Below, piece by piece: positions 1-8,624 of a stretch of 8,624 nt of DNA (its first letter is position 1; every line of letters begins with the position of its first letter). A program made the position numbers and the translations under genes. Below the pieces are notes generated by a model that was given only the letters and a program-made list of their open reading frames with translations, ran no database searches and had not been told where the DNA came from. The stretch covers positions 1 to 8,624 of the forward strand of contig JAFCDK010000048.1 of the NCBI GenBank assembly GCA_017609745.1, given 5' to 3'. The DNA is from Candidatus Pacearchaeota archaeon (GTDB lineage: Archaea; Nanobdellota; Nanobdellia; Pacearchaeales; GW2011-AR1).

Positions 1-940
1 CAAATCTTATTCTATTTCTTTCTTGGATTGCTTTTTTGATTTCTTGAACAGGAGTTTGAGAATTTGCACAACTTTTTGAGGTTGAAGGCTTATTTTCTGT
101 TGTTCCACAATTGTTTAACTCATTACATGTTCGAATTTGTTGTTCATTTGTACAAGGTCCCCACCCTGTACAGTTCCAATCTTCTATACAAACACTAACA
201 GTGCAACTTTGACTTTCAGAAGGCTTATTTTCTGTTGTTCCACAAGAATTTGAATCTGTGCAAGATCTTGTCTGTTGATTGTTTATACAAGTAGACCAAT
301 CAGTACACTGCCAGTTTTCAGTACAAGTAGTATCACTAGTTGGGATTAAGTTTATAGAACTTCGTGAATAAAGAGCTTTTAATGTTGAGATACCAGTGTT
401 TATTGTATCATATCCTTCTTTGATTATTTCCCAACTATAAGTTCCTGTATTCAATCTTTGAACAGCAAATCCCTCTTCATCGGAAAGAGTGCTGGCCACT
501 TCAACTCCTTCGGATAAGAATTTCACTATTGCACCTTCAATAATCTGACCGGTAGTGGAATCTTTAATTGTTATAACATAAGTTCCTTCATTTGCCTCTT
601 GTAAATTAAATGTTAAAGTCTGGTCTGCTTCACCAATGATTACTGTTTTTACTTCCTGTTCAAAGTCTTTTTTGCCTGCTAAAGCTGTGTAAGTTCCAGG
701 ATTGAGTGTAAAAGTAGCTTTTCCTAAAGAATCAACGACTTCTGTACTAATTGTAGTTGTATGGCCTTTATGAAATTCTAATGGGCTATCAACTTGTCCA
801 GAGAGTATTATAATTGCAAGGGACGTAATAGGATTCTCATTCATATCATTAACCGTAACTTCAAGAGTAGATGCAGAAATTAAATTGGTAATTGAAATAA
901 GTATGACCATTACTAACATTAAAACAACTAATTTTTTCAT
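1..940 (-). CDS. Secreted cell-surface protein, 3' end truncated by the window edge: signal peptide, two carboxypeptidase-regulatory-like/PEGA-like beta-sandwich segments, two 45-aa Cys-rich modules
   Basis: Absent from the supplied ORF track because no stop lies in the window. My own translation from the ATG (complement of 938-940) stays open to base 2 (313 codons). It begins MKKLVVLMLVMVILISITNLISAS (Lys-Lys plus hydrophobic core, a Sec-type signal). Then come segments such as GTYVITIKDSTTGQIIEGAIVKFLSEGVEVASTLSDEEGFAVQRLNTGTYSWEIIKEGY, typical of CarboxypepD_reg/PEGA folds. Then come TCTENWQCTDWSTCINNQQTRSCTDSNSCGTTENKPSESQSC and VCIEDWNCTGWGPCTNEQQIRTCNELNNCGTTENKPSTSKSC. Confidence 0.8.
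   Translation of the reverse strand, partial: MKKLVVLMLVMVILISITNLISASTLEVTVNDMNENPITSLAIIILSGQVDSPLEFHKGHTTTISTEVVDSLGKATFTLNPGTYTALAGKKDFEQEVKTVIIGEADQTLTFNLQEANEGTYVITIKDSTTGQIIEGAIVKFLSEGVEVASTLSDEEGFAVQRLNTGTYSWEIIKEGYDTINTGISTLKALYSRSSINLIPTSDTTCTENWQCTDWSTCINNQQTRSCTDSNSCGTTENKPSESQSCTVSVCIEDWNCTGWGPCTNEQQIRTCNELNNCGTTENKPSTSKSCANSQTPVQEIKKAIQERNRIRF
56..325 (-). repeat. In-frame tandem coding repeat, 2 x 135 nt (45 codons), encoding the Cys-rich module, with a 27-nt perfectly identical core
   Basis: GAAGGCTTATTTTCTGTTGTTCCACAA occurs at 84-110 and again at 219-245, an offset of 135 nt or 45 codons. The first Cys codons of the two modules (complements of 188-190 and 323-325) show the same offset. 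The outer boundaries are approximate. Confidence 0.8.
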
Positions 941-1347
941 AAAATAAATATAGAACATGTATTTATAAATCTTATCAAATTCCCAAGCCCACTAGCAAAC
1001 TCACAACAAGTGCGATTGCTATTCCCACTATGACTTCTAAAAGCTTCTAAAAGTGTATGATTAAATTCTCCTCGAATTTCTCTTATATGTATTAAGTCGC
1101 TTATTACAATTATTGCAAAAAATAAGGATACAAAAAACAAGTTGCTAAATTCTTCAAGTAAATAAATACTAAAAACTACTGCAGATACAATAGCTGTATG
1201 TGTGCTGGGCATGCCTCCATATTGTCTGCAGAGGATTTTGAGAATATATTTTTTTCTTTTAACAACAGCAATAAGGAATTTAATAAATTGGGAAATAAGA
1301 AAAGAAAATACTACACTTAATACTATTGGGTTTGTTATGAAAGACAT
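937..1347 (-). CDS. Divergent PAP2 family (YuiD/DUF212-like) integral membrane protein with a frameshifted C-terminus (possible pseudogene or assembly error)
   Basis: GGMPSTHTAIVSAV matches the family signature GGMPSSHSA, and DLIHIREIRGE...NHTLLE parallels B. subtilis YuiD DATGVRRHAGE...GHQPIEV (recalled from memory). After HTLLE the listed frame gives non-hydrophobic residues (AFRSHSGNSNRTCCEF...). The alternative frame gives the expected last helix, VIVGIAIALVVSLLVGLGI, followed by a stop at 975-977. The start lies 6 nt after the eif2g stop. Confidence 0.8.
   Translation of the reverse strand: MSFITNPIVLSVVFSFLISQFIKFLIAVVKRKKYILKILCRQYGGMPSTHTAIVSAVVFSIYLLEEFSNLFFVSLFFAIIVISDLIHIREIRGEFNHTLLEAFRSHSGNSNRTCCEFASGLGNLIRFINTCSIFIL
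962..969 (-). promoter_or_regulatory. TATA-like box TTTATAAA 22-29 nt upstream of the surface-protein ATG (940)
   Basis: The palindromic TTTATAAA at 962-969 lies in the 34-nt stretch between the inferred native PAP2 stop (975-977) and the ATG at 940. AT-rich background makes chance matches common. Confidence 0.35.
1034..1053. repeat. Perfect 10-bp tandem duplication CTTCTAAAAG x2 (plus strand) inside the PAP2-like gene
   Basis: Read directly: 1034-1043 and 1044-1053 are identical and the flanking bases differ. Ten is not a multiple of three, so the duplication shifts the reading frame. Confidence 0.95.
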
Positions 1348-1353
1348 TTCAAA

Positions 1354-2565
1354 TTATAAAACTTCCCCCCACCCAATCAACCTCCAGTGATTGTTAATGT
1401 TTCTGGCAATTCCAATACAATCTCCTTTAAATGAAACAACAGGGATTTTAAGACTGAGTTCAATTTCTTTATTATCTTTGCTTATTTTTTTTATTGTTCC
1501 TACAGTTGTTGTTGTGTTTACTGAGAGCATTAACATTTCAGACATTTTTAATTGGTCTACTTTTTTAGTATTGTCAAGTCCTAAAACTTGTTTAAATAAA
1601 TTTGTTTTTAATTTAATATTCTCTGTTGTGTTGGGAAGCTTATTTGCTAAACCCGCGACTTGTCCTGATAAAGAATCTGCTTTTGCTAATGACATATCTA
1701 ATTGAGTTTCAATTGCTAGACTGCCTCCTGGACCTGCTTGTTCAACACTATATTTTCCTCTATGCATTGAAACTATTTTTGTTTTCAAAGTTTCATTAAT
1801 TTCTTGGTTTTGTTTTATTATTGTAATTCCCGGCTTTATTTCAATCTCATCTCCAATTTTGAGTTCTCCTTTTTTTAATGCTCCTCCTAAAACAGCCCCC
1901 TTAAGTTTGCTTGCATCTGTTCCAGGTTTGTTAATATCAAAACTTCTTGCAATTATGAAAATAGGCTCTGATTTTTCATTTTTTCTTGGAATTTTAAGTT
2001 CACAGAGAATTTCTAAAATTTTATTTATATTAATTCCTTGTTGTGCAGAAACAGGAATTATCTCTGATTTTTCTGCAATTGTGCCTTTAACAAATTCTTT
2101 TATTTCAGCATAATTTTTTTCAGTTTGTTCTTTTGAAACTAAATCTATTTTATTCTGAATAATTATGATATTTTTAACATCTTTAGATTCTAAAGCCATT
2201 AAATGTTCTTTTGTTTGAGGTTTTATGCCTTCATTAGCAGCTATAACTAAAATAGCCGCATCTATAATTGCTACTCCAGAAAGCATTGTTGCCATTAACA
2301 TTTCGTGTCCAGGAGCGTCAACAAATGTAACATAACATTCAGGTTTTCCTTCGCCTTTAATATTATATTCTTTTCCTTTTTTGTATATAACTGCATCTGC
2401 GTAACCTAACTTAATTGTAATTCCTCTTTTAAGTTCTTCAGAATGAATATCTGTCCATTGTCCAGTTAATTGCTGGAGCAAAGTAGTCTTGCCATGATCT
2501 ATATGCCCTACTATGCCAATATTCATTATAGGCAGTTTTGATATGTCTATATTAGGTTTAGCCAT
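1354..2565 (-). CDS. eif2g: Translation initiation factor aIF-2 gamma subunit
   Basis: GTPase motifs GHIDHGKT (G1), DAPGHE (G3) and QNKIDL (G4). There is near-collinear similarity to Pyrococcus aIF2-gamma as I recall it (HSEELKRGITIKLGYADA, PQTKEHLMAL, RSFDINKPGT, GGVLGG-like GAVLGGAL, C-terminal RWRLIGWG). 403 aa. Confidence 0.95.
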   Translation of the reverse strand: MAKPNIDISKLPIMNIGIVGHIDHGKTTLLQQLTGQWTDIHSEELKRGITIKLGYADAVIYKKGKEYNIKGEGKPECYVTFVDAPGHEMLMATMLSGVAIIDAAILVIAANEGIKPQTKEHLMALESKDVKNIIIIQNKIDLVSKEQTEKNYAEIKEFVKGTIAEKSEIIPVSAQQGININKILEILCELKIPRKNEKSEPIFIIARSFDINKPGTDASKLKGAVLGGALKKGELKIGDEIEIKPGITIIKQNQEINETLKTKIVSMHRGKYSVEQAGPGGSLAIETQLDMSLAKADSLSGQVAGLANKLPNTTENIKLKTNLFKQVLGLDNTKKVDQLKMSEMLMLSVNTTTTVGTIKKISKDNKEIELSLKIPVVSFKGDCIGIARNINNHWRLIGWGEVL

Positions 2566-3121: not shown

Positions 3122-3673
3122 TTACTCTTCACTTTTTTCTTCTGGTTTAGTTTCCTCTTTTATTTTTTGTTTTTCTTCTGGTTTTAATTCTTGTAGTTTT
3201 TCAGTTGTAGTTTCTGCGGGCTTTTTAACTGAGGTTTCAGAACCTTTTTCCTTTTTTCCTTTAACTTGGTCAGGAAAAACTTCAGCCAATGTTTTTTCAC
3301 CTGCTTTAAGAACATTAAAATTAATTTGAACTGTGTCTCCTGAAATTGTATTTCCTCTAACAGATTTTTTCATTCTAAGACCTTTTGGTTTGTTTCTTCC
3401 TTTTTTCTTTTTTCCTTCTTTTTTTGGTTTTTTCTTAAATCCTTTGCTGTATGTGAGTAGAACTTTTCTTAATTCAGTACCTTCTTGGTTTGCAAGTGAT
3501 GGAAAACCTGCTTTATCACTTGCTCCAGTTAATTTTAGTTCATAATTTTTTAAGTCAGGAAGCAGGGTTTCGCCTTTAATATTTTCACCAATTTTCATTC
3601 CAATAAGGTTTTCACTGTCTAATTCAAAATAATATGTTTTTCCTTTTTCTGAGATATTAATTTTAAATACCAC
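3122..3673 (-). CDS. rps6e: 30S ribosomal protein S6e with a Lys-rich internal insertion and a roughly 48-aa K/E/T-rich C-terminal tail
   Basis: FKINISEKGKTYYFELD...LIGMKIGENIKGE...YELKLTGASDKAGFP...VRGNTISGDTVQINFNV follows the archaeal S6e pattern. The start codon is GTG (complement of 3671-3673). At 183 aa it is longer than the roughly 125-135 aa archaeal S6e I recall. Confidence 0.9.
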   Translation of the reverse strand: MVFKINISEKGKTYYFELDSENLIGMKIGENIKGETLLPDLKNYELKLTGASDKAGFPSLANQEGTELRKVLLTYSKGFKKKPKKEGKKKKGRNKPKGLRMKKSVRGNTISGDTVQINFNVLKAGEKTLAEVFPDQVKGKKEKGSETSVKKPAETTTEKLQELKPEEKQKIKEETKPEEKSEE

Positions 3674-3928: not shown

Positions 3929-4633
3929 ATGGGTTTTATTCTAAACTTTCTTATGAAAATGAGACCATTAAAAAAAACACTGGCCGGATTTTTTGCCCCT
4001 TTAGTAATGACAGCAGGACTTTCACTTAGTGCAGTTAATTCTGCTATAGCAGATGATAATAAATTAGAAACTCAATTACAGAGAAATGAACCCAAAAAAT
4101 GCAGATTAGTTGAAAAAGGAGTTTTAGTTTCTTATGGATATGGAAATGTGAATAATCAAAAAACAGATGGTCCATATGAAGTTAGCTCTGTTATGGGGAG
4201 ACTTGGGTGGGATATTAAACCTTTTGTCGAGGATAAATTACATTTACATCCAAAGGGAAAATTAACTGGATTAGTAGAGCCTTTTACAAGTGCTGTGACA
4301 AGCCCAGATAATAATTTTGAAGTAGGTCTTAATTTACTTGCCAAATATAATTTTAGAAATGAGAATAAAAAACCTGTTAGTTGGTTGGACAAAATTGACC
4401 CATATATTGAGGGGGGATTTGGAGCTATTTATGCTTCACAAGATTTTAAATATCAATCAACAAAAGGCAATTTTCTCGTGCAAGTTGGAGCAGGTTTAGA
4501 TTATAATTTAAATGATGATTTCTTGGTTTTTGTAGGAGTAAGAAGAAGGCATTTTTCAAATGCTAAAATACAACAACCAAATCGTGGAGTTGATATAAAC
4601 CAACTAATTGTTGGAGGAAGTTGGAAATTTTGA
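3929..4633 (+). CDS. PagL-like acyloxyacyl hydrolase / lipid A 3-O-deacylase family outer-membrane beta-barrel homologue with an N-terminal signal peptide
   Basis: The signal is MKMRPLKK plus a hydrophobic core plus AIA/DD. Eight amphipathic strand-like segments are present: GVLVSYGYG, VMGRLGWDI, LTGLVEPFTSAV, FEVGLNLLAKYNF, PYIEGGFGAIYAS, FLVQVGAGLDYNL, FLVFVGVRRRHFS and QLIVGGSWKF. The protein ends in Phe. RRRHFSNAKIQQPNRGVD aligns with P. aeruginosa PagL RAIHYSNAGLKQPNDGIE (recalled), which holds the catalytic His-x-Ser (here His208 at 4550-4552 and Ser210 at 4556-4558). The true start may be 3953. Confidence 0.75.
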   Translation: MGFILNFLMKMRPLKKTLAGFFAPLVMTAGLSLSAVNSAIADDNKLETQLQRNEPKKCRLVEKGVLVSYGYGNVNNQKTDGPYEVSSVMGRLGWDIKPFVEDKLHLHPKGKLTGLVEPFTSAVTSPDNNFEVGLNLLAKYNFRNENKKPVSWLDKIDPYIEGGFGAIYASQDFKYQSTKGNFLVQVGAGLDYNLNDDFLVFVGVRRRHFSNAKIQQPNRGVDINQLIVGGSWKF

Positions 4634-4703: not shown

Positions 4704-5411
4704 ATGAGAGAAAAAGCAGTGAAAAGTTTGGAAAATATTCTTAATGTTGTTACAGGAACAGCATATTCTGATATAAAAGAAGTTTGTCGAGAATTTGAAA
4801 TTTTTTCAGATAAAAAAAAATGCATAAGAAATATTGCTAAGCTTGGTTTTTCTGTAGGTATATCTATTCCACCTTATGTTTTGGTTCATGAGTTTATGCA
4901 TGCTGGTGCTGCTAAATTATTAGGTGCAGATAAAATAAAAATAAGTTTAGATAATTCTGTTGGTGGTGGCTTGCTCGAAAAATTTATGCCGGTCCAAGGA
5001 GAAAATCTGCTTTTTGAAGAAAAATGTTTTGGTTATTGTGATTGGCGGGGGCTAAACAAAGTAGAAGAAACACTTACATTATATGCTCCTTATTTATTAA
5101 CGCCTATTGGAATCTCTATAATGTATGCAGGAATAAGGAAGAAGAATATTTATTTGACTGGTGTTGGAATGTTAGTTGGTATAAAACCACTTTTAGACTT
5201 GGGGTTTAGAGCATCTTTTGATTTGAGCCAATTTGGAATGAATATTTATTATGGTTTGTCAAACTATTTTTTCTTTCCTGAAAATCCTGGAGAAGTTACA
5301 AGAATTGCTTGTATGCTTGGGACTATGGCAGGAACTTATTATGTTAGCAAGAAAATTGTGAAAGGAGTTGGAAGAGGTTTTGAGAGATTAAGAATTAAAA
5401 ATAAACAGTAG
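4704..5411 (+). CDS. HExxH-motif membrane protein, putative zincin-like metallopeptidase (DUF3267-like)
   Basis: HEFMH (4887-4901) lies at the end of a hydrophobic segment: ISIPPYVLVHEFMHAGAAKLLGADKIKISL. Later hydrophobic segments include LYAPYLLTPIGISIMYAG and YLTGVGMLVGIKPLL. This layout resembles the HELxHxxxxxxxG-plus-LAP arrangement I recall for DUF3267. There is no signal peptide. Confidence 0.55.
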   Translation: MREKAVKSLENILNVVTGTAYSDIKEVCREFEIFSDKKKCIRNIAKLGFSVGISIPPYVLVHEFMHAGAAKLLGADKIKISLDNSVGGGLLEKFMPVQGENLLFEEKCFGYCDWRGLNKVEETLTLYAPYLLTPIGISIMYAGIRKKNIYLTGVGMLVGIKPLLDLGFRASFDLSQFGMNIYYGLSNYFFFPENPGEVTRIACMLGTMAGTYYVSKKIVKGVGRGFERLRIKNKQ

Positions 5412-5423
5412 AATCAAGATTAC

Positions 5424-6005
5424 TTAATTTTTGTATATCATCAGATATTTTTCCAACAAGTTTTTCAATTGACATTTTTCCAAAAAATCTTGGTTCTCCA
5501 AATCTAATAATTGCAAGTTTTTTGGAATTGGAAGAAACGACGCATGTTTTTTAAAATAATATAATCTTGAATATTCTAAACCTGCAGGAACTAAAGATAT
5601 TGGTGTTGAAAGTTTTTCCTGCATTTGCTCAAAATATTTAAATGGATTGATATTTAATTTGCTCATTTTTTTTGCATTAATTTTACCTTCTGGAAACATT
5701 ATAATAAGTTCATTATTTTGTAAATAATCTTCAATTTTTGCATATGATTCTCTATTTATTTGTTTTGCAATTTGTTTTGCTTTTTCTCTTCCTATCTTTT
5801 CACTTAATTTTTCAAAATCTTTACGAGTTACAAATTTAATTCCCCCAACACTTTCTAACCAGCTTGGTAAAGTAGATTTTGCAAAAAAACTGCAATATCT
5901 CTTAGTTTTTGTTTTAATATAATATGCAGAAAGTAATCCATCAACATATGACCGATGTTTTGGGAGAATAATAGCAGGACCATTTTTTATAAAAAACATG
6001 AGCAA
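5424..6005 (-). CDS. PlsC/LPLAT-family acyltransferase (1-acyl-sn-glycerol-3-phosphate acyltransferase-like), C-terminal main part
   Basis: All four acyltransferase blocks are present: H-RSYV-D (HxxxxD), GGIKFVTR (GxxFxxR), MFPEG (FPEG) and ISLVPAGL (hydrophobic-Pro block). The listed start is TTG, and HxxxxD sits only 17 residues from it. That is too close for a complete fold and implies a missing N-terminus (see 5941-6129). Confidence 0.75.
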   Translation of the reverse strand: MLMFFIKNGPAIILPKHRSYVDGLLSAYYIKTKTKRYCSFFAKSTLPSWLESVGGIKFVTRKDFEKLSEKIGREKAKQIAKQINRESYAKIEDYLQNNELIIMFPEGKINAKKMSKLNINPFKYFEQMQEKLSTPISLVPAGLEYSRLYYFKKHASFLPIPKNLQLLDLENQDFLEKCQLKNLLEKYLMIYKN

Positions 6006-6129
6006 GATTAAGTGCTGTGCTTATAGAATTATATAAAAAATAATTTCTATTGTCTTTAAAAAGTTTGTTAGATTCAATTTGAGAATTATTTTGTTTTTTT
6101 TGTAATAAATGTTTTTCAAGAGAGTTCAT
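5941..6129 (-). pseudogene. Probable N-terminal fragment of the same acyltransferase in another frame (gene split by a frameshift)
   Basis: The 62-aa ORF overlaps the start of the 193-aa ORF. Removing one base from either homopolymer at 5983-5996 (plus strand TTTTTTATAAAAAA) joins ...NSISTALNLAHVF to IKNGPAIILPKHRSYVDG. The result is a continuous 234-aa protein with HxxxxD near residue 58, which is typical spacing for PlsC. Confidence 0.5.
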
Positions 6130-6152: not shown

Positions 6153-6160
6153 AAATTATA
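6153..6160 (-). promoter_or_regulatory. TATA-like box (minus strand TATAATTT) 24-31 nt upstream of the ATG at 6129, overlapping the radical SAM stop codon
   Basis: The gap between the radical SAM stop and the acyltransferase-fragment ATG is only 26 nt. Co-transcription without this box is equally plausible. Confidence 0.25.
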
Positions 6161-7616
6161 ATCTTTCTTCTAATCCAAAATTAACTAAACATTCTTTATA
6201 ATTTCTTGCATTTTCACATACAGCCTCGTAGATTGGACCAGATACACACTGCTCTGCGCCTTTATATGAACCATGAACATTATGTTTTTCTACAATATTC
6301 TTTAATGTTTCAGGATTATCAACATAAGGGCAGGGGGCTAATAAGTTTTTATTAAAAGGCTGTTTTGTTCTTGCATCTTTTAACCAATCTGCGGTCATAC
6401 ATTCTGTCAATGTTTTATCATATAAATTATCTTTTGAAAAAGGAATAAAAGCACAAGGTTCAAGTTCTGCATTAGCATTTATATGAGCATATATTTTCCC
6501 CCATCCAATACATCCTCCTGTAATTCCCCCATCGTTCCAGAAATCATATAATGCCATTTGTTTTTTATCTTGTCTTATTTTTTTAAGTAAATCATATCTT
6601 TGTATTCTTTGTTCAGGAGTAGGAATTATTTCAGGATTAGGGTTTCTTCCAACAGCAGTATATTGGAAAAGCCAGCCAATACGAGCACCTCTTTCAATTA
6701 GCTCATCAAAATATTGTTCATTTACTACAGAATCATGATTTTGTTTAGTATGAACTGCTGAGATTCCGAAAAAAACTCCCCTATCTTTTAAACGAGCCAT
6801 AGCATCCATCACTTTATCATAGACTCCTTTGCCTCTAAAATACTCTGTTGCTTGTTTATCACCAGATAAACTAAAACATGGATAAAAATTTCCAAGTTCT
6901 GCTATTTTATCTGCCATTTGGTCGTTAATTAAAGTTCCATTTGTATAAGGCATAAATGCAATATCATTATGTTCTTCAAGCATATTATAAAGATAAGGAA
7001 GCATTGTTGGTTCTCCACCTGTTAAAACAATAAAATGTATTCCCATTTCTTTTTTAGCTTCATTTAAAATTTCATTTACTTTTTTTTCAGGTATTGTAAT
7101 ACCTTTTTGATGTTCTGCCCAGCAACCTTGACATTTTAAATTACAATTCATTGAAGGACTCATAAGAAGAAATTGCGGCGGAAGTTCTCCATGTTTTTTT
7201 TCATATTGTTCTGCAATTTCTGTTCTTTCGAGTGTCTGACGATAAAACAAATTTTCAATTAATTTTAATCTTGTTTGATTATTAAGTTCTGGAAGAGTTT
7301 GTTTTATAACATTTGAGAAAGAACTACAAGATTGTAATTTTCTTTCAACCTGCTCTGGACTCCAGCCATATTTTTTACCACTTTCCTGTATTTTTGAAAG
7401 ATATTTGTTTCTTGCTATATCAATAAGGCTACCTTGATATTTTACAGGAATCTTGGGAAAAAGAGGCAATGCTGCTTTTATTCCCCCTTTAACAATTGAT
7501 TTTCTTATTAAACTAAAAATTTTAGACCCATTCCTATTAGTGTTTTTTTTAATTAATTCTGGTTCTACAAATTCAACTTTTTTTTCAAGTTCTATTGCTA
7601 GCCCTTCTTTTGCCAT
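6156..7616 (-). CDS. Radical SAM enzyme, 486 aa, with a roughly 150-aa N-terminal extension and a Cys-containing C-terminal auxiliary region
   Basis: The motif C158-x3-C162-x2-C165 (MNCNLKCQGCWA, nt 7122-7145) is followed by the GGE SAM-binding motif (LTGGEPTM). The C-terminal region GGCIGWGKIYAHINANAELEPCAF...LLAPCPYVDNPE carries further Cys at residues 369, 388, 406, 429, 457, 467 and 476, consistent with an auxiliary Fe-S (SPASM/twitch-like) domain. Confidence 0.85.
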   Translation of the reverse strand: MAKEGLAIELEKKVEFVEPELIKKNTNRNGSKIFSLIRKSIVKGGIKAALPLFPKIPVKYQGSLIDIARNKYLSKIQESGKKYGWSPEQVERKLQSCSSFSNVIKQTLPELNNQTRLKLIENLFYRQTLERTEIAEQYEKKHGELPPQFLLMSPSMNCNLKCQGCWAEHQKGITIPEKKVNEILNEAKKEMGIHFIVLTGGEPTMLPYLYNMLEEHNDIAFMPYTNGTLINDQMADKIAELGNFYPCFSLSGDKQATEYFRGKGVYDKVMDAMARLKDRGVFFGISAVHTKQNHDSVVNEQYFDELIERGARIGWLFQYTAVGRNPNPEIIPTPEQRIQRYDLLKKIRQDKKQMALYDFWNDGGITGGCIGWGKIYAHINANAELEPCAFIPFSKDNLYDKTLTECMTADWLKDARTKQPFNKNLLAPCPYVDNPETLKNIVEKHNVHGSYKGAEQCVSGPIYEAVCENARNYKECLVNFGLEERL

Positions 7617-7637
7617 TATTAATTTTTGTTTAATTAC

Positions 7638-7645
7638 TTTAAAAG
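7638..7645 (-). promoter_or_regulatory. TATA-like box (minus strand CTTTTAAA) 22-29 nt upstream of the radical SAM ATG (7616)
   Basis: Lies in the 138-nt divergent spacer 7617-7754. Confidence 0.3.
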
Positions 7646-7728
7646 TATTTGTATTGTGTATTAATTATAAAATAGTATATTTTATGGTGCATTATATTTC
7701 AATAATATTTATATAATCATTTATTTAA

Positions 7729-7736
7729 TTTAAAAT
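7729..7736 (+). promoter_or_regulatory. TATA-like TTTAAAAT 19-26 nt upstream of the alpha/beta-hydrolase ATG (7755)
   Basis: Lies in the same divergent spacer as the radical SAM box. AT-rich background applies. Confidence 0.3.
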
Positions 7737-7754
7737 AAATTAAAAGATGAGAAA

Positions 7755-8624
7755 ATGGTTGAAGAAACTAAAGATTTAAAGGAGGGATATTTTAAGAGTT
7801 TTGATGATTCGCAGATTTATTATAATTTATATAATTCTAAATTTGATAAACCTTTTGTAACATTTGTTCATGGACATTCTGGAGGAAATTTTACGATGTT
7901 TAATCATCAAATTGAAGCTGTATCTAAAGATTATAATGTTCTTGCTTTTGATTTGCGCGGAGGTGGAAGATCTGAATTAAGTAATGGAAAAAAAGATTTT
8001 TACAGTTTAGAGAATTTTGCGAGAGATACTCTTGGTTTAATGGAGCATCTTGAAATAGAAAGAACACATCTATTAGGTTATAGTTTAGGCACAACAATTG
8101 CTCTTAAAGTCTTTGATATGCAACCAGAGGTTATCGATTCATTAATTTTACTGAATCCTACATATAATCTATTAGGAAATACTTGTTTAATAAATCAGAT
8201 GATTGTTCGTAGTGGTTTATGCTCTATTTTAGAACATTCTATTAATTATACTGCAGCTTTTATAAATAAATTAAAAGGTGTTGAACCAACACTCTTTGAT
8301 TATTTAAATGTTAGGGGAGAAAATTCATATATTAATTTCACTTTTTTAAAAACAAGAACTCCTGAAGAATTAATGTCAAGATTAAATCTTGTTAAAAATC
8401 GTATTAAATGGAATATAGAAGAAGTTATTGATAAAATTGATGTTCCTTTATTTTGTATTAGCGGAAGCAAGGATATATGGACTATGCCTTCTGCTGCTAA
8501 AGAAATTGTACAAAGAGCAAAAACAGACAGTGAAGCAGTAATTATTGAGGGAAATGGGCATGCAGCTCTTTATTTAAATCCAGAACCAATTACTAAAGAA
8601 GTTTTAGATTTTTTAAAAAGGCAA
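7755..8624 (+). CDS. Alpha/beta-fold hydrolase (esterase/lipase-type Ser-Asp-His enzyme), 3' end runs off the window
   Basis: Absent from the ORF track because no stop lies in the window. My translation from ATG 7755 is open for 290 codons: MVEETKDLKEGYF...FVTFVHGHSGG (HG oxyanion motif), LLGYSLGTTIAL (GxSxG nucleophile elbow), FCISGSKDIW (Asp) and EGNGHAALY (His). Confidence 0.85.
   Translation, partial: MVEETKDLKEGYFKSFDDSQIYYNLYNSKFDKPFVTFVHGHSGGNFTMFNHQIEAVSKDYNVLAFDLRGGGRSELSNGKKDFYSLENFARDTLGLMEHLEIERTHLLGYSLGTTIALKVFDMQPEVIDSLILLNPTYNLLGNTCLINQMIVRSGLCSILEHSINYTAAFINKLKGVEPTLFDYLNVRGENSYINFTFLKTRTPEELMSRLNLVKNRIKWNIEEVIDKIDVPLFCISGSKDIWTMPSAAKEIVQRAKTDSEAVIIEGNGHAALYLNPEPITKEVLDFLKRQ

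Follow-up and report, generated by a model that had tools for sequence, protein, structure and literature searches.

Two bacterial enzymes are proven membrane-spanning lipid synthases (Mss), namely Tmari_0825 of T. maritima and WP_129545148.1 of T. ethanolicus, for which diacid lipids have been shown (Sahonero-Canavesi et al. 2022, PMC13159169). Homologues, recognised by E≤1e-50 together with at least 30% identity to a proven Mss (PMC13159169, PMC13023045), have been published from anaerobic Firmicutes, Thermotogae, Actinobacteria, Spirochaetes, Armatimonadetes, Atribacterota and PVC and, among archaea, from DPANN (PMC13159169). Asgard homologues also appear, with those of DPANN, in published surveys. 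Among Black Sea archaea, Mss homologues were confined to Woesearchaeia (PMC11868695), and a match has been reported in Acetobacteraceae (PMC13023045). The archaeal tetraether synthase (Tes, or GDGT-MAS) and Gms (GMGT synthase) are likewise radical SAM enzymes with auxiliary clusters, the chemistry proposed for Tes being an sp3-sp3 coupling of two lipid tails (PMC13459092); Gms is a SPASM/twitch enzyme with a COG4001 domain (PMC11214058). HpnH (adenosyl-hopene transferase, TIGR03470) is a further lipid-modifying radical SAM enzyme.

The stretch of DNA analysed here (8,624 nt, hereafter the window) is unquestionably archaeal, as genes for aIF2-gamma and S6e lie 3–5 kb from the gene of interest. 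The latter, identified by its open reading frame, Pfam, family search and an AlphaFold model, encodes a radical SAM protein of 486 residues (6156–7616, minus strand). We put at roughly 60% the probability that it is a member of the bacterial Mss-type family, with a twitch-like domain, which a small DPANN lineage took over from bacteria along with, at a minimum, an alpha/beta hydrolase. The only Pfam matches to the protein are Radical_SAM (residues 153–297, E 3.8e-19) and Fer4_12. The core is canonical, as the first-pass annotation of this DNA had stated. The CX3CX2C motif for the radical SAM [4Fe-4S] cluster, translated as CNLKCQGC (C158, C162 and C165; residues 158–165, nucleotides 7122–7145, minus strand), is conserved in at least 98% of an alignment of 253 relatives, and the SAM-binding GGE motif (G200, G201 and E202; 7011–7019, minus strand) is invariant in both family alignments (A1 and A2). 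The AlphaFold model has a pLDDT of 92. Ahead of this core the same annotation had seen about 150 residues with no recognisable motif, and indeed no Pfam or NCBIfam family matches there. Residues 1–145 (7182–7616, minus strand) consist of helices only in both structure models, that of AlphaFold included, and this domain is common to the whole family. Searched alone, it returned no known fold (best Foldseek E 1.3, best VIA Z 7.0).

The family is discrete: clustering at 50% identity gives 391 clusters within E≤1e-30, and its members are proteins of ~460 residues, mostly from anaerobic bacteria. In Moorella genomes two members are found (E 1e-94 and 1e-75), with nothing more below 1e-7. The matches listed include hosts from Bacillota (Moorella, Desulforudis, Carboxydothermus), Actinomycetota, Spirochaetota, Armatimonadota, Atribacterota, Planctomycetota, Omnitrophota, Poribacteria and Woesearchaeota, as well as Acetobacteraceae (L078), a range that agrees with the published one for Mss, DPANN included. 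A Thermosipho sp. (Thermotogales) member, P0267, is 35% identical to the window protein over 343 residues (E 2e-83 pairwise, 1.6e-72 library-wide), which exceeds the published Mss cut-off, with P0267 as a proxy that is not itself a proven Mss. No named Thermoanaerobacter, Thermosediminibacter or Thermotoga protein is among the best 120 matches per query (the window protein and the Moorella and Koleobacter-type homologues), and no Thermotogota are among the best 80 of 562 relatives on genome contigs. A metagenome search returned no close relatives, and the ESM Atlas yielded generic radical SAM/SPASM clusters only.

Membership in Mss is supported by proxies, namely the range of phyla, the size, the architecture and the Thermosipho relative. 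At 486 residues the protein lies above the minimum of 400 residues given for Mss in the Gms paper, and both groups share the same unusual phyla, DPANN Woesearchaeia among them, and hosts restricted to anaerobes. It differs from Mss in that its host is an archaeon in which fatty-acid and phospholipid synthesis genes were not found, and in features of its clade, which carries an extra cysteine, C406, an N-terminus longer by ~35 residues and a hydrolase/GH3 context undescribed for Mss. In the tree, the window's 10-sequence clade is nested within a bacterial clade of Planctomycetota, Poribacteria and Abyssobacteria; together with its bacterial sisters it forms a group of 18 tips (SH-aLRT 99), and the Thermosipho pair is joined only weakly (SH-aLRT 81) to the window's clade. 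One tip (L086) and one tally derive from the unpublished genome G333, on which no claim rests. Since DPANN Mss homologues have already been reported in outline, we regard the gene as a well-supported candidate and not as a new kind of enzyme.

A twitch-like auxiliary-cluster domain is assigned to the C-terminal region (6312–6539, minus strand) from sequence, conservation, the model and structural matches. Four cysteines are found here, C369 (GGC), C388 (EPCAF), C406 (TEC) and C429 (PCP), and a beta-hairpin at residues 376–386 is followed by a helix in the AlphaFold model. The first-pass annotation had suggested that this region could bind an extra Fe-S cluster. C369, C388 and C429 are conserved in at least 98% of 253 family members; the position of C406 is cysteine in only 20 of the 253, nine of these falling within the window's 10-sequence clade. 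Judged from sequence, the three family-invariant cysteines with C406 would be enough for one auxiliary cluster. The seven-cysteine, two-cluster pattern of SPASM (PF13186; CX9-15GX4C ... CX2CX5CX3C ... C) is not seen, there being no CX2CX5CX3C and only three to four cysteines. At E≤0.01 the window protein has no Pfam SPASM match, although this annotation is precomputed on most of its relatives. A twitch-like single-cluster domain fits better than a two-cluster SPASM domain.

The best structural match of the AlphaFold model is the twitch enzyme SkfB (PDB code: 6EFN; Z 25.7, rmsd 3.6 over 290 residues), followed by SuiB (Z 24.5), both of them RiPP maturases, and SuiB is also the best match by sequence among PDB chains (E 2.8e-8). 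The likeness to enzymes of the SkfB/BtrN type lies in a single auxiliary domain of beta-hairpin plus helix with few cysteines. With these matches, and with sub-threshold NCBIfam hits that are themselves peptide maturases, the protein might act on a ribosomal peptide or protein as a SPASM/twitch maturase, of the sactipeptide, ranthipeptide or streptide type. We consider this improbable. Identity to the SkfB/BtrN-type enzymes is only 17–20%, the auxiliary cysteines number only three to four, and the N-terminal domain, all-helical in the models and lacking a winged-helix beta-sheet as well as any fold match, is predicted not to be a peptide-binding RRE. The gaps flanking the gene, 26 nt and 138 nt long, are too short for a precursor gene, and none is present; nor is any small-peptide or protease/transporter neighbour recurrent across 121 loci of the family.

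Very improbable, in our estimation, is a role in cofactor or sulfatase maturation, as a heme enzyme like AhbD or NirJ, an anaerobic sulfatase maturase (anSME) or a MoaA-like protein. The highest NCBIfam matches are indeed to AhbD (63 bits) and NirJ (62 bits), the model aligns with anSME (Z 22.9) and MoaA (Z 17.9), and some of the ESM Atlas clusters bear the name 'anaerobic sulfatase-maturating enzyme'. The bit scores are, however, far under the curated cut-offs (265–650 bits), the 7-Cys SPASM pattern is absent, and heme, molybdopterin and sulfatase genes are not among the neighbours. The HpnH profile is matched nearly from end to end (residues 147–431 against positions 27–311 of 318), but its score, 44.6 bits, falls short of the cut-off of 225, and there are no hopanoid genes. 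Across the equivalogs for AhbD, NirJ, anSME and HpnH the scores span 40–63 bits against cut-offs of 225–650, none of which is reached. The peptide-maturase, AhbD, sulfatase and HpnH readings were accordingly rejected on cut-offs, cysteine pattern and gene context.

An archaeal host could also point to an enzyme of the tetraether type, Tes/GDGT-MAS or Gms, acting on isoprenoid ether lipids; Tes (MJ0619; PDB code: 7TOM) shares with the window protein a radical SAM core followed by a C-terminal Fe-S domain. The fold match to 7TOM (Z 17.5, rmsd 2.8, 232 residues aligned) is, however, weaker than those to SkfB, SuiB and anSME and ranks 11th, under generic twitch/SPASM enzymes, and a phmmer search against all PDB chains gave no GDGT-MAS match at E≤0.01, on which grounds Tes was rejected. 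Tes has sites for two auxiliary clusters and a mononuclear, rubredoxin-like Fe, for which the three to four auxiliary cysteines of the window protein are too few. The family is moreover overwhelmingly bacterial and includes Moorella and Desulforudis, which do not make GDGTs; its many members in Firmicutes are at odds with the range reported for Gms. Genes for GGGPS and UbiA, and for ketoacyl-synthase, were not found in the 71%-complete genome. We therefore hold a tetraether-type enzyme to be extremely improbable. Where the first-pass annotation could not place the protein in a Tes/Mss clade, the link to Tes is thus lost and that to Mss retained, by the proxies given above.

The same annotation had argued for a lipid substrate from an acyltransferase fragment 26 nt downstream on the same strand. 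The gap is as described, with the radical SAM stop at 6156–6158 and the ATG of a 62-residue ORF at 6129. This ORF and one of 193 residues (5424–6005) are two frames of one PlsC-like (PF01553) acyltransferase (5424–6129, minus strand; Pfam E 6.6e-10), separated from each other by an apparent frameshift where a T6/A6 run lies, close to 5983–5996. The longer piece keeps intact HX4D (KHRSYVD) and FPEG motifs, and the 71%-complete genome holds no second PF01553 match. Across the family, a lipid neighbour (acyltransferase or patatin) occurs at 17 of 121 loci, in several clades, while the remaining 104 have none within ~6 kb. In loci of the Desulforudis type the radical SAM gene is followed by a PF01553 acyltransferase and then a patatin; an LpxL-type acyltransferase adjoins it in Omnitrophota, and a patatin in two DPANN loci. 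Alpha/beta hydrolases also recur beside family members in several unrelated clades, and at most other DPANN loci the adjoining genes are housekeeping ones. A recurrent association with PlsC-like and related lipid genes is seen at a minority of loci, and the link to an acyltransferase is not conserved in the nearest archaeal relative (L001), whose kept partners are a divergent alpha/beta hydrolase and GH3. Among the nine closest relatives (P0002–P0010), the neighbourhood was read for L001 only.

A lipid substrate is nonetheless the best-supported reading of the radical SAM enzyme, given the Mss-like range of phyla, size and architecture and the acyl-lipid genes recurring beside family members; the exact reaction is inferred. 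Of the original argument, the family and the recurrent neighbours hold up, whereas the particular acyltransferase link is not conserved in L001, and the acyltransferase gene here appears frameshifted.

On its other side the radical SAM gene faces a divergent alpha/beta hydrolase with a GYSLG nucleophile elbow (7755–8624, plus strand; Abhydrolase_1 E 2.5e-19), cut by the contig end. The two are separated by an AT-rich spacer of 138 bp (7617–7754) with TATA-like boxes on both sides. A scan for promoters and terminators found 14 sites against 14.4 expected, the model being for sigma-70 and the host an archaeon. The orthologue in L001 is 44.6% identical and lies divergently beside the radical SAM gene, in the same arrangement. 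A PagL-like lipid A deacylase homologue is also found within the window. The operon of the bacterial sisters comprises an alpha/beta hydrolase, NTP-transferase, radical SAM, GH3, methyltransferase, DUF362/ferredoxin, a second hydrolase and an LpxL-type acyltransferase, and the window hydrolase is related to the second of its hydrolases (L004:6674–7642, E 7.5e-6).

The GH3, methyltransferase and DUF362 neighbours of the window's clade and its sisters are undescribed for Mss and might point to some other reaction. The subclade may, within the same family, perform another radical reaction on an acyl chain or free fatty acid, such as cross-linking, cyclisation or desaturation; GH3 would next adenylate the modified chain and an acyltransferase would transfer it, so that the product is a modified acyl or amino lipid that does not span the membrane. 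The well-supported 18-tip clade carries a conserved operon of its own, hydrolase and GH3 are retained in the nearest archaeal relative, and C406 and the PagL-like homologue are in line with such a departure. Against it, every family-invariant residue is retained, no GH3 turned up in the 71%-complete genome to which the window belongs, and a pathway of this kind is without biochemical precedent. We judge it unlikely, though by some way the most credible of the alternatives.

If the protein is an Mss-type enzyme, its reduced [4Fe-4S] cluster would split SAM to yield a 5'-deoxyadenosyl radical, which would abstract hydrogen close to the methyl terminus of a fatty-acyl chain bound in a lipid. The lipid radical could then couple with the tail of a second chain, assisted by the auxiliary cluster, to give a diacid (membrane-spanning) lipid. 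This mechanism is postulated by analogy with Tes, for which the same chemistry has been proposed. Because no lipid-synthesis genes turned up in the 71%-complete genome, scavenging would supply the substrate, probably a bacterial ester lipid. The neighbouring esterase might deacylate and the PlsC-like acyltransferase reacylate. Taken further, the locus could represent a horizontally acquired cassette for remodelling acyl lipids, built around the radical SAM gene and made up of an esterase, an Mss-type tail-coupling enzyme and an acyltransferase, with a PagL-like barrel beside it in this window and a GH3 adenylating enzyme in the nearest relative; we offer this extension tentatively and think it doubtful.

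The surveys that reported DPANN and Asgard homologues of Mss did not examine their gene context, and the window provides a concrete, small test case. It places the radical SAM gene in the company of enzymes for cleaving off and re-attaching fatty acids, in a genome where the archaeal and bacterial lipid-synthesis genes searched for were not found. The bacterial sister operon is a second, undescribed context that could reveal the actual product of this branch of the family. Should the enzyme couple acyl tails, its host would be a lipid-scavenging archaeon that remodels bacterial ester lipids, and this would matter for the 'lipid divide', for the hosts of DPANN archaea and for the origin of the branched tetraethers used as biomarkers in anoxic waters. 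If the reading as a remodelling cassette is true, the archaeon would have a monolayer membrane of bacterial type.

The radical SAM ORF of 486 residues (positions 6156–7616, minus strand) contains CNLKCQGC (CX3CX2C) at residues 158–165 and GGE at residues 200–202, and the Pfam Radical_SAM profile covers residues 153–297 with an E-value of 3.8e-19. The core recognised in the first-pass annotation is thereby confirmed, as are the roughly 150 motif-less residues before it: Pfam and NCBIfam returned no family match in the first ~145 residues. The AlphaFold model of the whole protein, with 77 homologues as input, has a pLDDT of 92 and a pTM of 0.90. The N-terminal domain modelled alone (77 sequences, pLDDT 82) is helical throughout and is unmatched among solved folds (lowest Foldseek E 1.3; highest VIA Z 7.0). 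A peptide-recognition (RRE) assignment for this domain was rejected on the purely helical model and the lack of a solved-fold match. The cysteine-bearing C-terminal region, also noted earlier, comprises C369 (GGC), C388 (EPCAF), C406 (TEC) and C429 (PCP). Only six cysteine columns are at least 98% conserved in the 253 family members, namely the CX3CX2C triad with C369, C388 and C429; C406 is a cysteine in 20 of the 253 sequences, nine of them within the clade of the window protein. The conserved set fits one auxiliary cluster carried by a twitch-like hairpin-helix element, and the seven-cysteine SPASM pattern is missing.

Sequence and fold searches favour SuiB, SkfB and anSME over GDGT-MAS, which makes the protein a radical SAM enzyme of the twitch/SPASM class rather than an orthologue of the archaeal tetraether synthase Tes. 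NCBIfam gave sub-threshold matches only (34–63 bits versus cut-offs of 170–650), to SPASM/twitch enzymes such as AhbD, NirJ, StsB, MftC and HpnH. Compared by sequence with every PDB chain, the protein matched SuiB (E 2.8e-8) and SkfB, with GDGT-MAS absent from the matches at E≤0.01. SuiB, SkfB and anSME took the top Foldseek ranks for the window model, and VIA-align, a structure search independent of Foldseek, returned Z-scores of 25.7 for SkfB, 24.5 for SuiB and 22.9 for anSME, with GDGT-MAS (PDB code: 7TOM) at rank 11 (Z 17.5).

A word-indexed search returned about ten close relatives at 49–55% identity, one named as a Nanoarchaeota MAG, followed by a very large set of 450–470 residue proteins from anaerobic bacteria at 37–46% identity. 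An exhaustive phmmer search of 1.84 billion representatives gave 391 clusters at E≤1e-30. Hosts among the matches listed include Moorella, Desulforudis, Desulfofundulus, Carboxydothermus, Pelotomaculum, Thermacetogenium, Koleobacter, Halanaerobiales and Dethiobacteria, together with Actinomycetota, Spirochaetota, Atribacterota, Armatimonadota, Planctomycetota, Omnitrophota, Poribacteria and Abyssobacteria. The family is discrete: two Moorella genomes contain a pair of members apiece (E 1e-94 and 1e-75), with the next radical SAM protein at only E 1e-7.

The T. maritima and T. ethanolicus versions of the bacterial synthase Mss join two fatty-acid tails under anoxic conditions (Sahonero-Canavesi et al., PMC13159169). 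That work takes E≤1e-50 together with ≥30% identity as the mark of a homologue, finds homologues in the same phyla as the present family, with 'unexpected' ones in Asgard and DPANN archaea, and lists Thermosipho among the diabolic-acid producers carrying mss. The best proxy for the proven references is P0267, a Thermotogales sequence annotated as 'radical SAM protein [Thermosipho sp.]', which shares 35% identity with the window protein across 343 residues (E 2e-83). In the Black Sea, Mss hits were reported for 7 of 13 Armatimonadota and 14 of 29 Poribacteria MAGs, with Woesearchaeia the only archaea (PMC11868695); an Acetobacteraceae hit is also on record (PMC13023045), and the family likewise includes an Acetobacteraceae MAG (L078). 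Judged by proxies, the window protein probably belongs to the Mss family in the operational sense used in those papers (a probability of about 85%). Of the Tes/Mss placement that the first-pass annotation left undecided, the Mss half is thus retained as probable and the Tes half falls.

FastTree (253 sequences) grouped the window protein with nine others, P0002–P0010, at support 100, including P0003 from a Nanoarchaeota MAG and P0006 from a Woesearchaeota MAG, whose gene at locus L001 is the nearest named relative. IQ-TREE (66 rows, LG+C20, quick search) recovered this clade, again at 100, nested at SH-aLRT 99 within an 18-tip group that it shares with Planctomycetota, Abyssobacteria, Poribacteria and unnamed metagenome sequences; a Thermosipho pair (support 99) joins that group at 81 only. 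The remaining DPANN homologues are scattered over at least three further positions in the tree. Family members were found in 5% of the DPANN genomes sampled (two sets of ~400 each), and across these the window's type was confined to its own genome and that of L001 (G401). The pattern is consistent with several bacteria-to-DPANN transfers, a direction that would follow from the family's bacterial bulk rather than from a rooted test. G+C is even across the region, so any transfer was not recent.

The radical SAM stop lies 26 nt upstream of the ATG of a 62-residue ORF on the same strand, as annotated; this fragment and a 193-residue ORF (5424–6005) form one PF01553 acyltransferase split at a T6/A6 run, with HX4D and FPEG motifs intact. 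The frameshift (region 5941–6020) falls at back-to-back T6/A6 runs, about ten codons ahead of HX4D. Misassembly, pseudogenisation or slippage could account for it. The same radical-SAM-then-PlsC order is seen in a distant clade, in Desulforudis sp. Tu-874 and a related MAG (L019/L021:5188–8896), where a 240-residue protein precedes the radical SAM gene, a PF01553 acyltransferase (stop/start overlap) and a patatin. The 240-residue protein has a weak TrmB-like HTH match and is a neighbour in 14 Firmicutes loci. Two Omnitrophota loci place an LpxL-type acyltransferase directly upstream of the radical SAM gene. At two DPANN loci a patatin lies directly downstream, and one has two PF01553 genes 4 kb off. 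Another DPANN clade (L141:5207–8686 and L170:2996–5890, genomes G148 and G655) has a small operon encoding a ~200-residue protein (weak winged-helix match), the Mss-like enzyme, either one or two patatin-like phospholipases, and a ~140-residue protein without a family assignment. A further DPANN locus (L155:5881–8679, G573) has tandem members of 460 and 457 residues adjoining pyruvate:ferredoxin oxidoreductase-type genes.

With HMMs built from acyltransferase, patatin and hydrolase proteins of family loci, such a gene was found within ~6 kb at 17 of 121 loci, acyltransferases occurring in five separate lineages; neighbours at the other 104 are housekeeping or unrelated, and 22 further DPANN loci showed no recurring lipid family. 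The link is therefore real and recurrent, yet a minority pattern. The lipid substrate earlier proposed from the acyltransferase gains from this recurrence; the acyltransferase itself is not present at L001, where a hydrolase is kept instead. That alpha/beta hydrolase is 44.6% identical to the one in the window (7755–8624, plus strand) and stands divergent beside the radical SAM gene exactly as there; the hydrolase is the conserved partner in the clade of the window protein.

L001 also encodes a GH3-family adenylating enzyme, 1.9 kb further along. At the bacterial sister loci (L003–L006) the radical SAM gene sits inside a conserved eight-gene operon (L003:2734–11976; L006:4028–13076; L004:33–7642; Poribacteria, Abyssobacteria and unnamed bacteria), for which we found no published description: alpha/beta hydrolase, MobA-like NTP-transferase, radical SAM, GH3, SAM methyltransferase, DUF362 with 4Fe-4S ferredoxin, Hydrolase_4 hydrolase and Lip_A_acyltrans (LpxL-type) acyltransferase. 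The second of its hydrolases is related to that of the window (E 7.5e-6). No GH3 gene turned up in the genome that carries the window, which is incomplete, and the window's contig stops inside the hydrolase gene. The GH3 and methyltransferase context of the sister operon leaves room for the main rival, in which this branch would carry out another reaction on acyl chains.

The contig is archaeal, with a G+C of ~30% and genes for aIF2-gamma (1354–2565, minus strand) and ribosomal protein S6e (3122–3673, minus strand). The genome (0.73 Mb, 61 contigs, 71% complete) has small DPANN genomes as phylum-level relatives. In this 71%-complete assembly PcrB/GGGPS, UbiA prenyltransferases and ketoacyl synthase gave no matches, and the acyltransferase is the sole PF01553 gene; the missing lipid-synthesis matches fit the lipid auxotrophy for which DPANN archaea are known (as cited in PMC11868695). 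Also on the contig, 255 bp from rps6e, is a beta-barrel homologue of the PagL (lipid A 3-O-deacylase) family (3929–4633, plus strand; Pfam E 3.9e-17). Between it and the acyltransferase is a hydrophobic 235-residue protein (4704–5411, plus strand) with one HEFMH motif, lacking Pfam or NCBIfam matches and homologues in any locus examined. A divergent PAP2-family (DUF212) gene (937–1347, minus strand) matches its Pfam profile up to residue 99, with an unmatched tail.

The lipid reading of the window protein is supported. Under tail coupling, the chemistry that an analogy with Tes suggests for Mss (PMC13459092), SAM would be cleaved reductively, hydrogen would be abstracted from a lipid-bound acyl chain close to its omega end, and coupling to a second tail would follow with the auxiliary cluster assisting; scavenged ester lipids may be handled by the neighbouring esterase and acyltransferase. 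DPANN homologues of Mss are already on record and the window gene is probably one more, in a cassette context so far undescribed.
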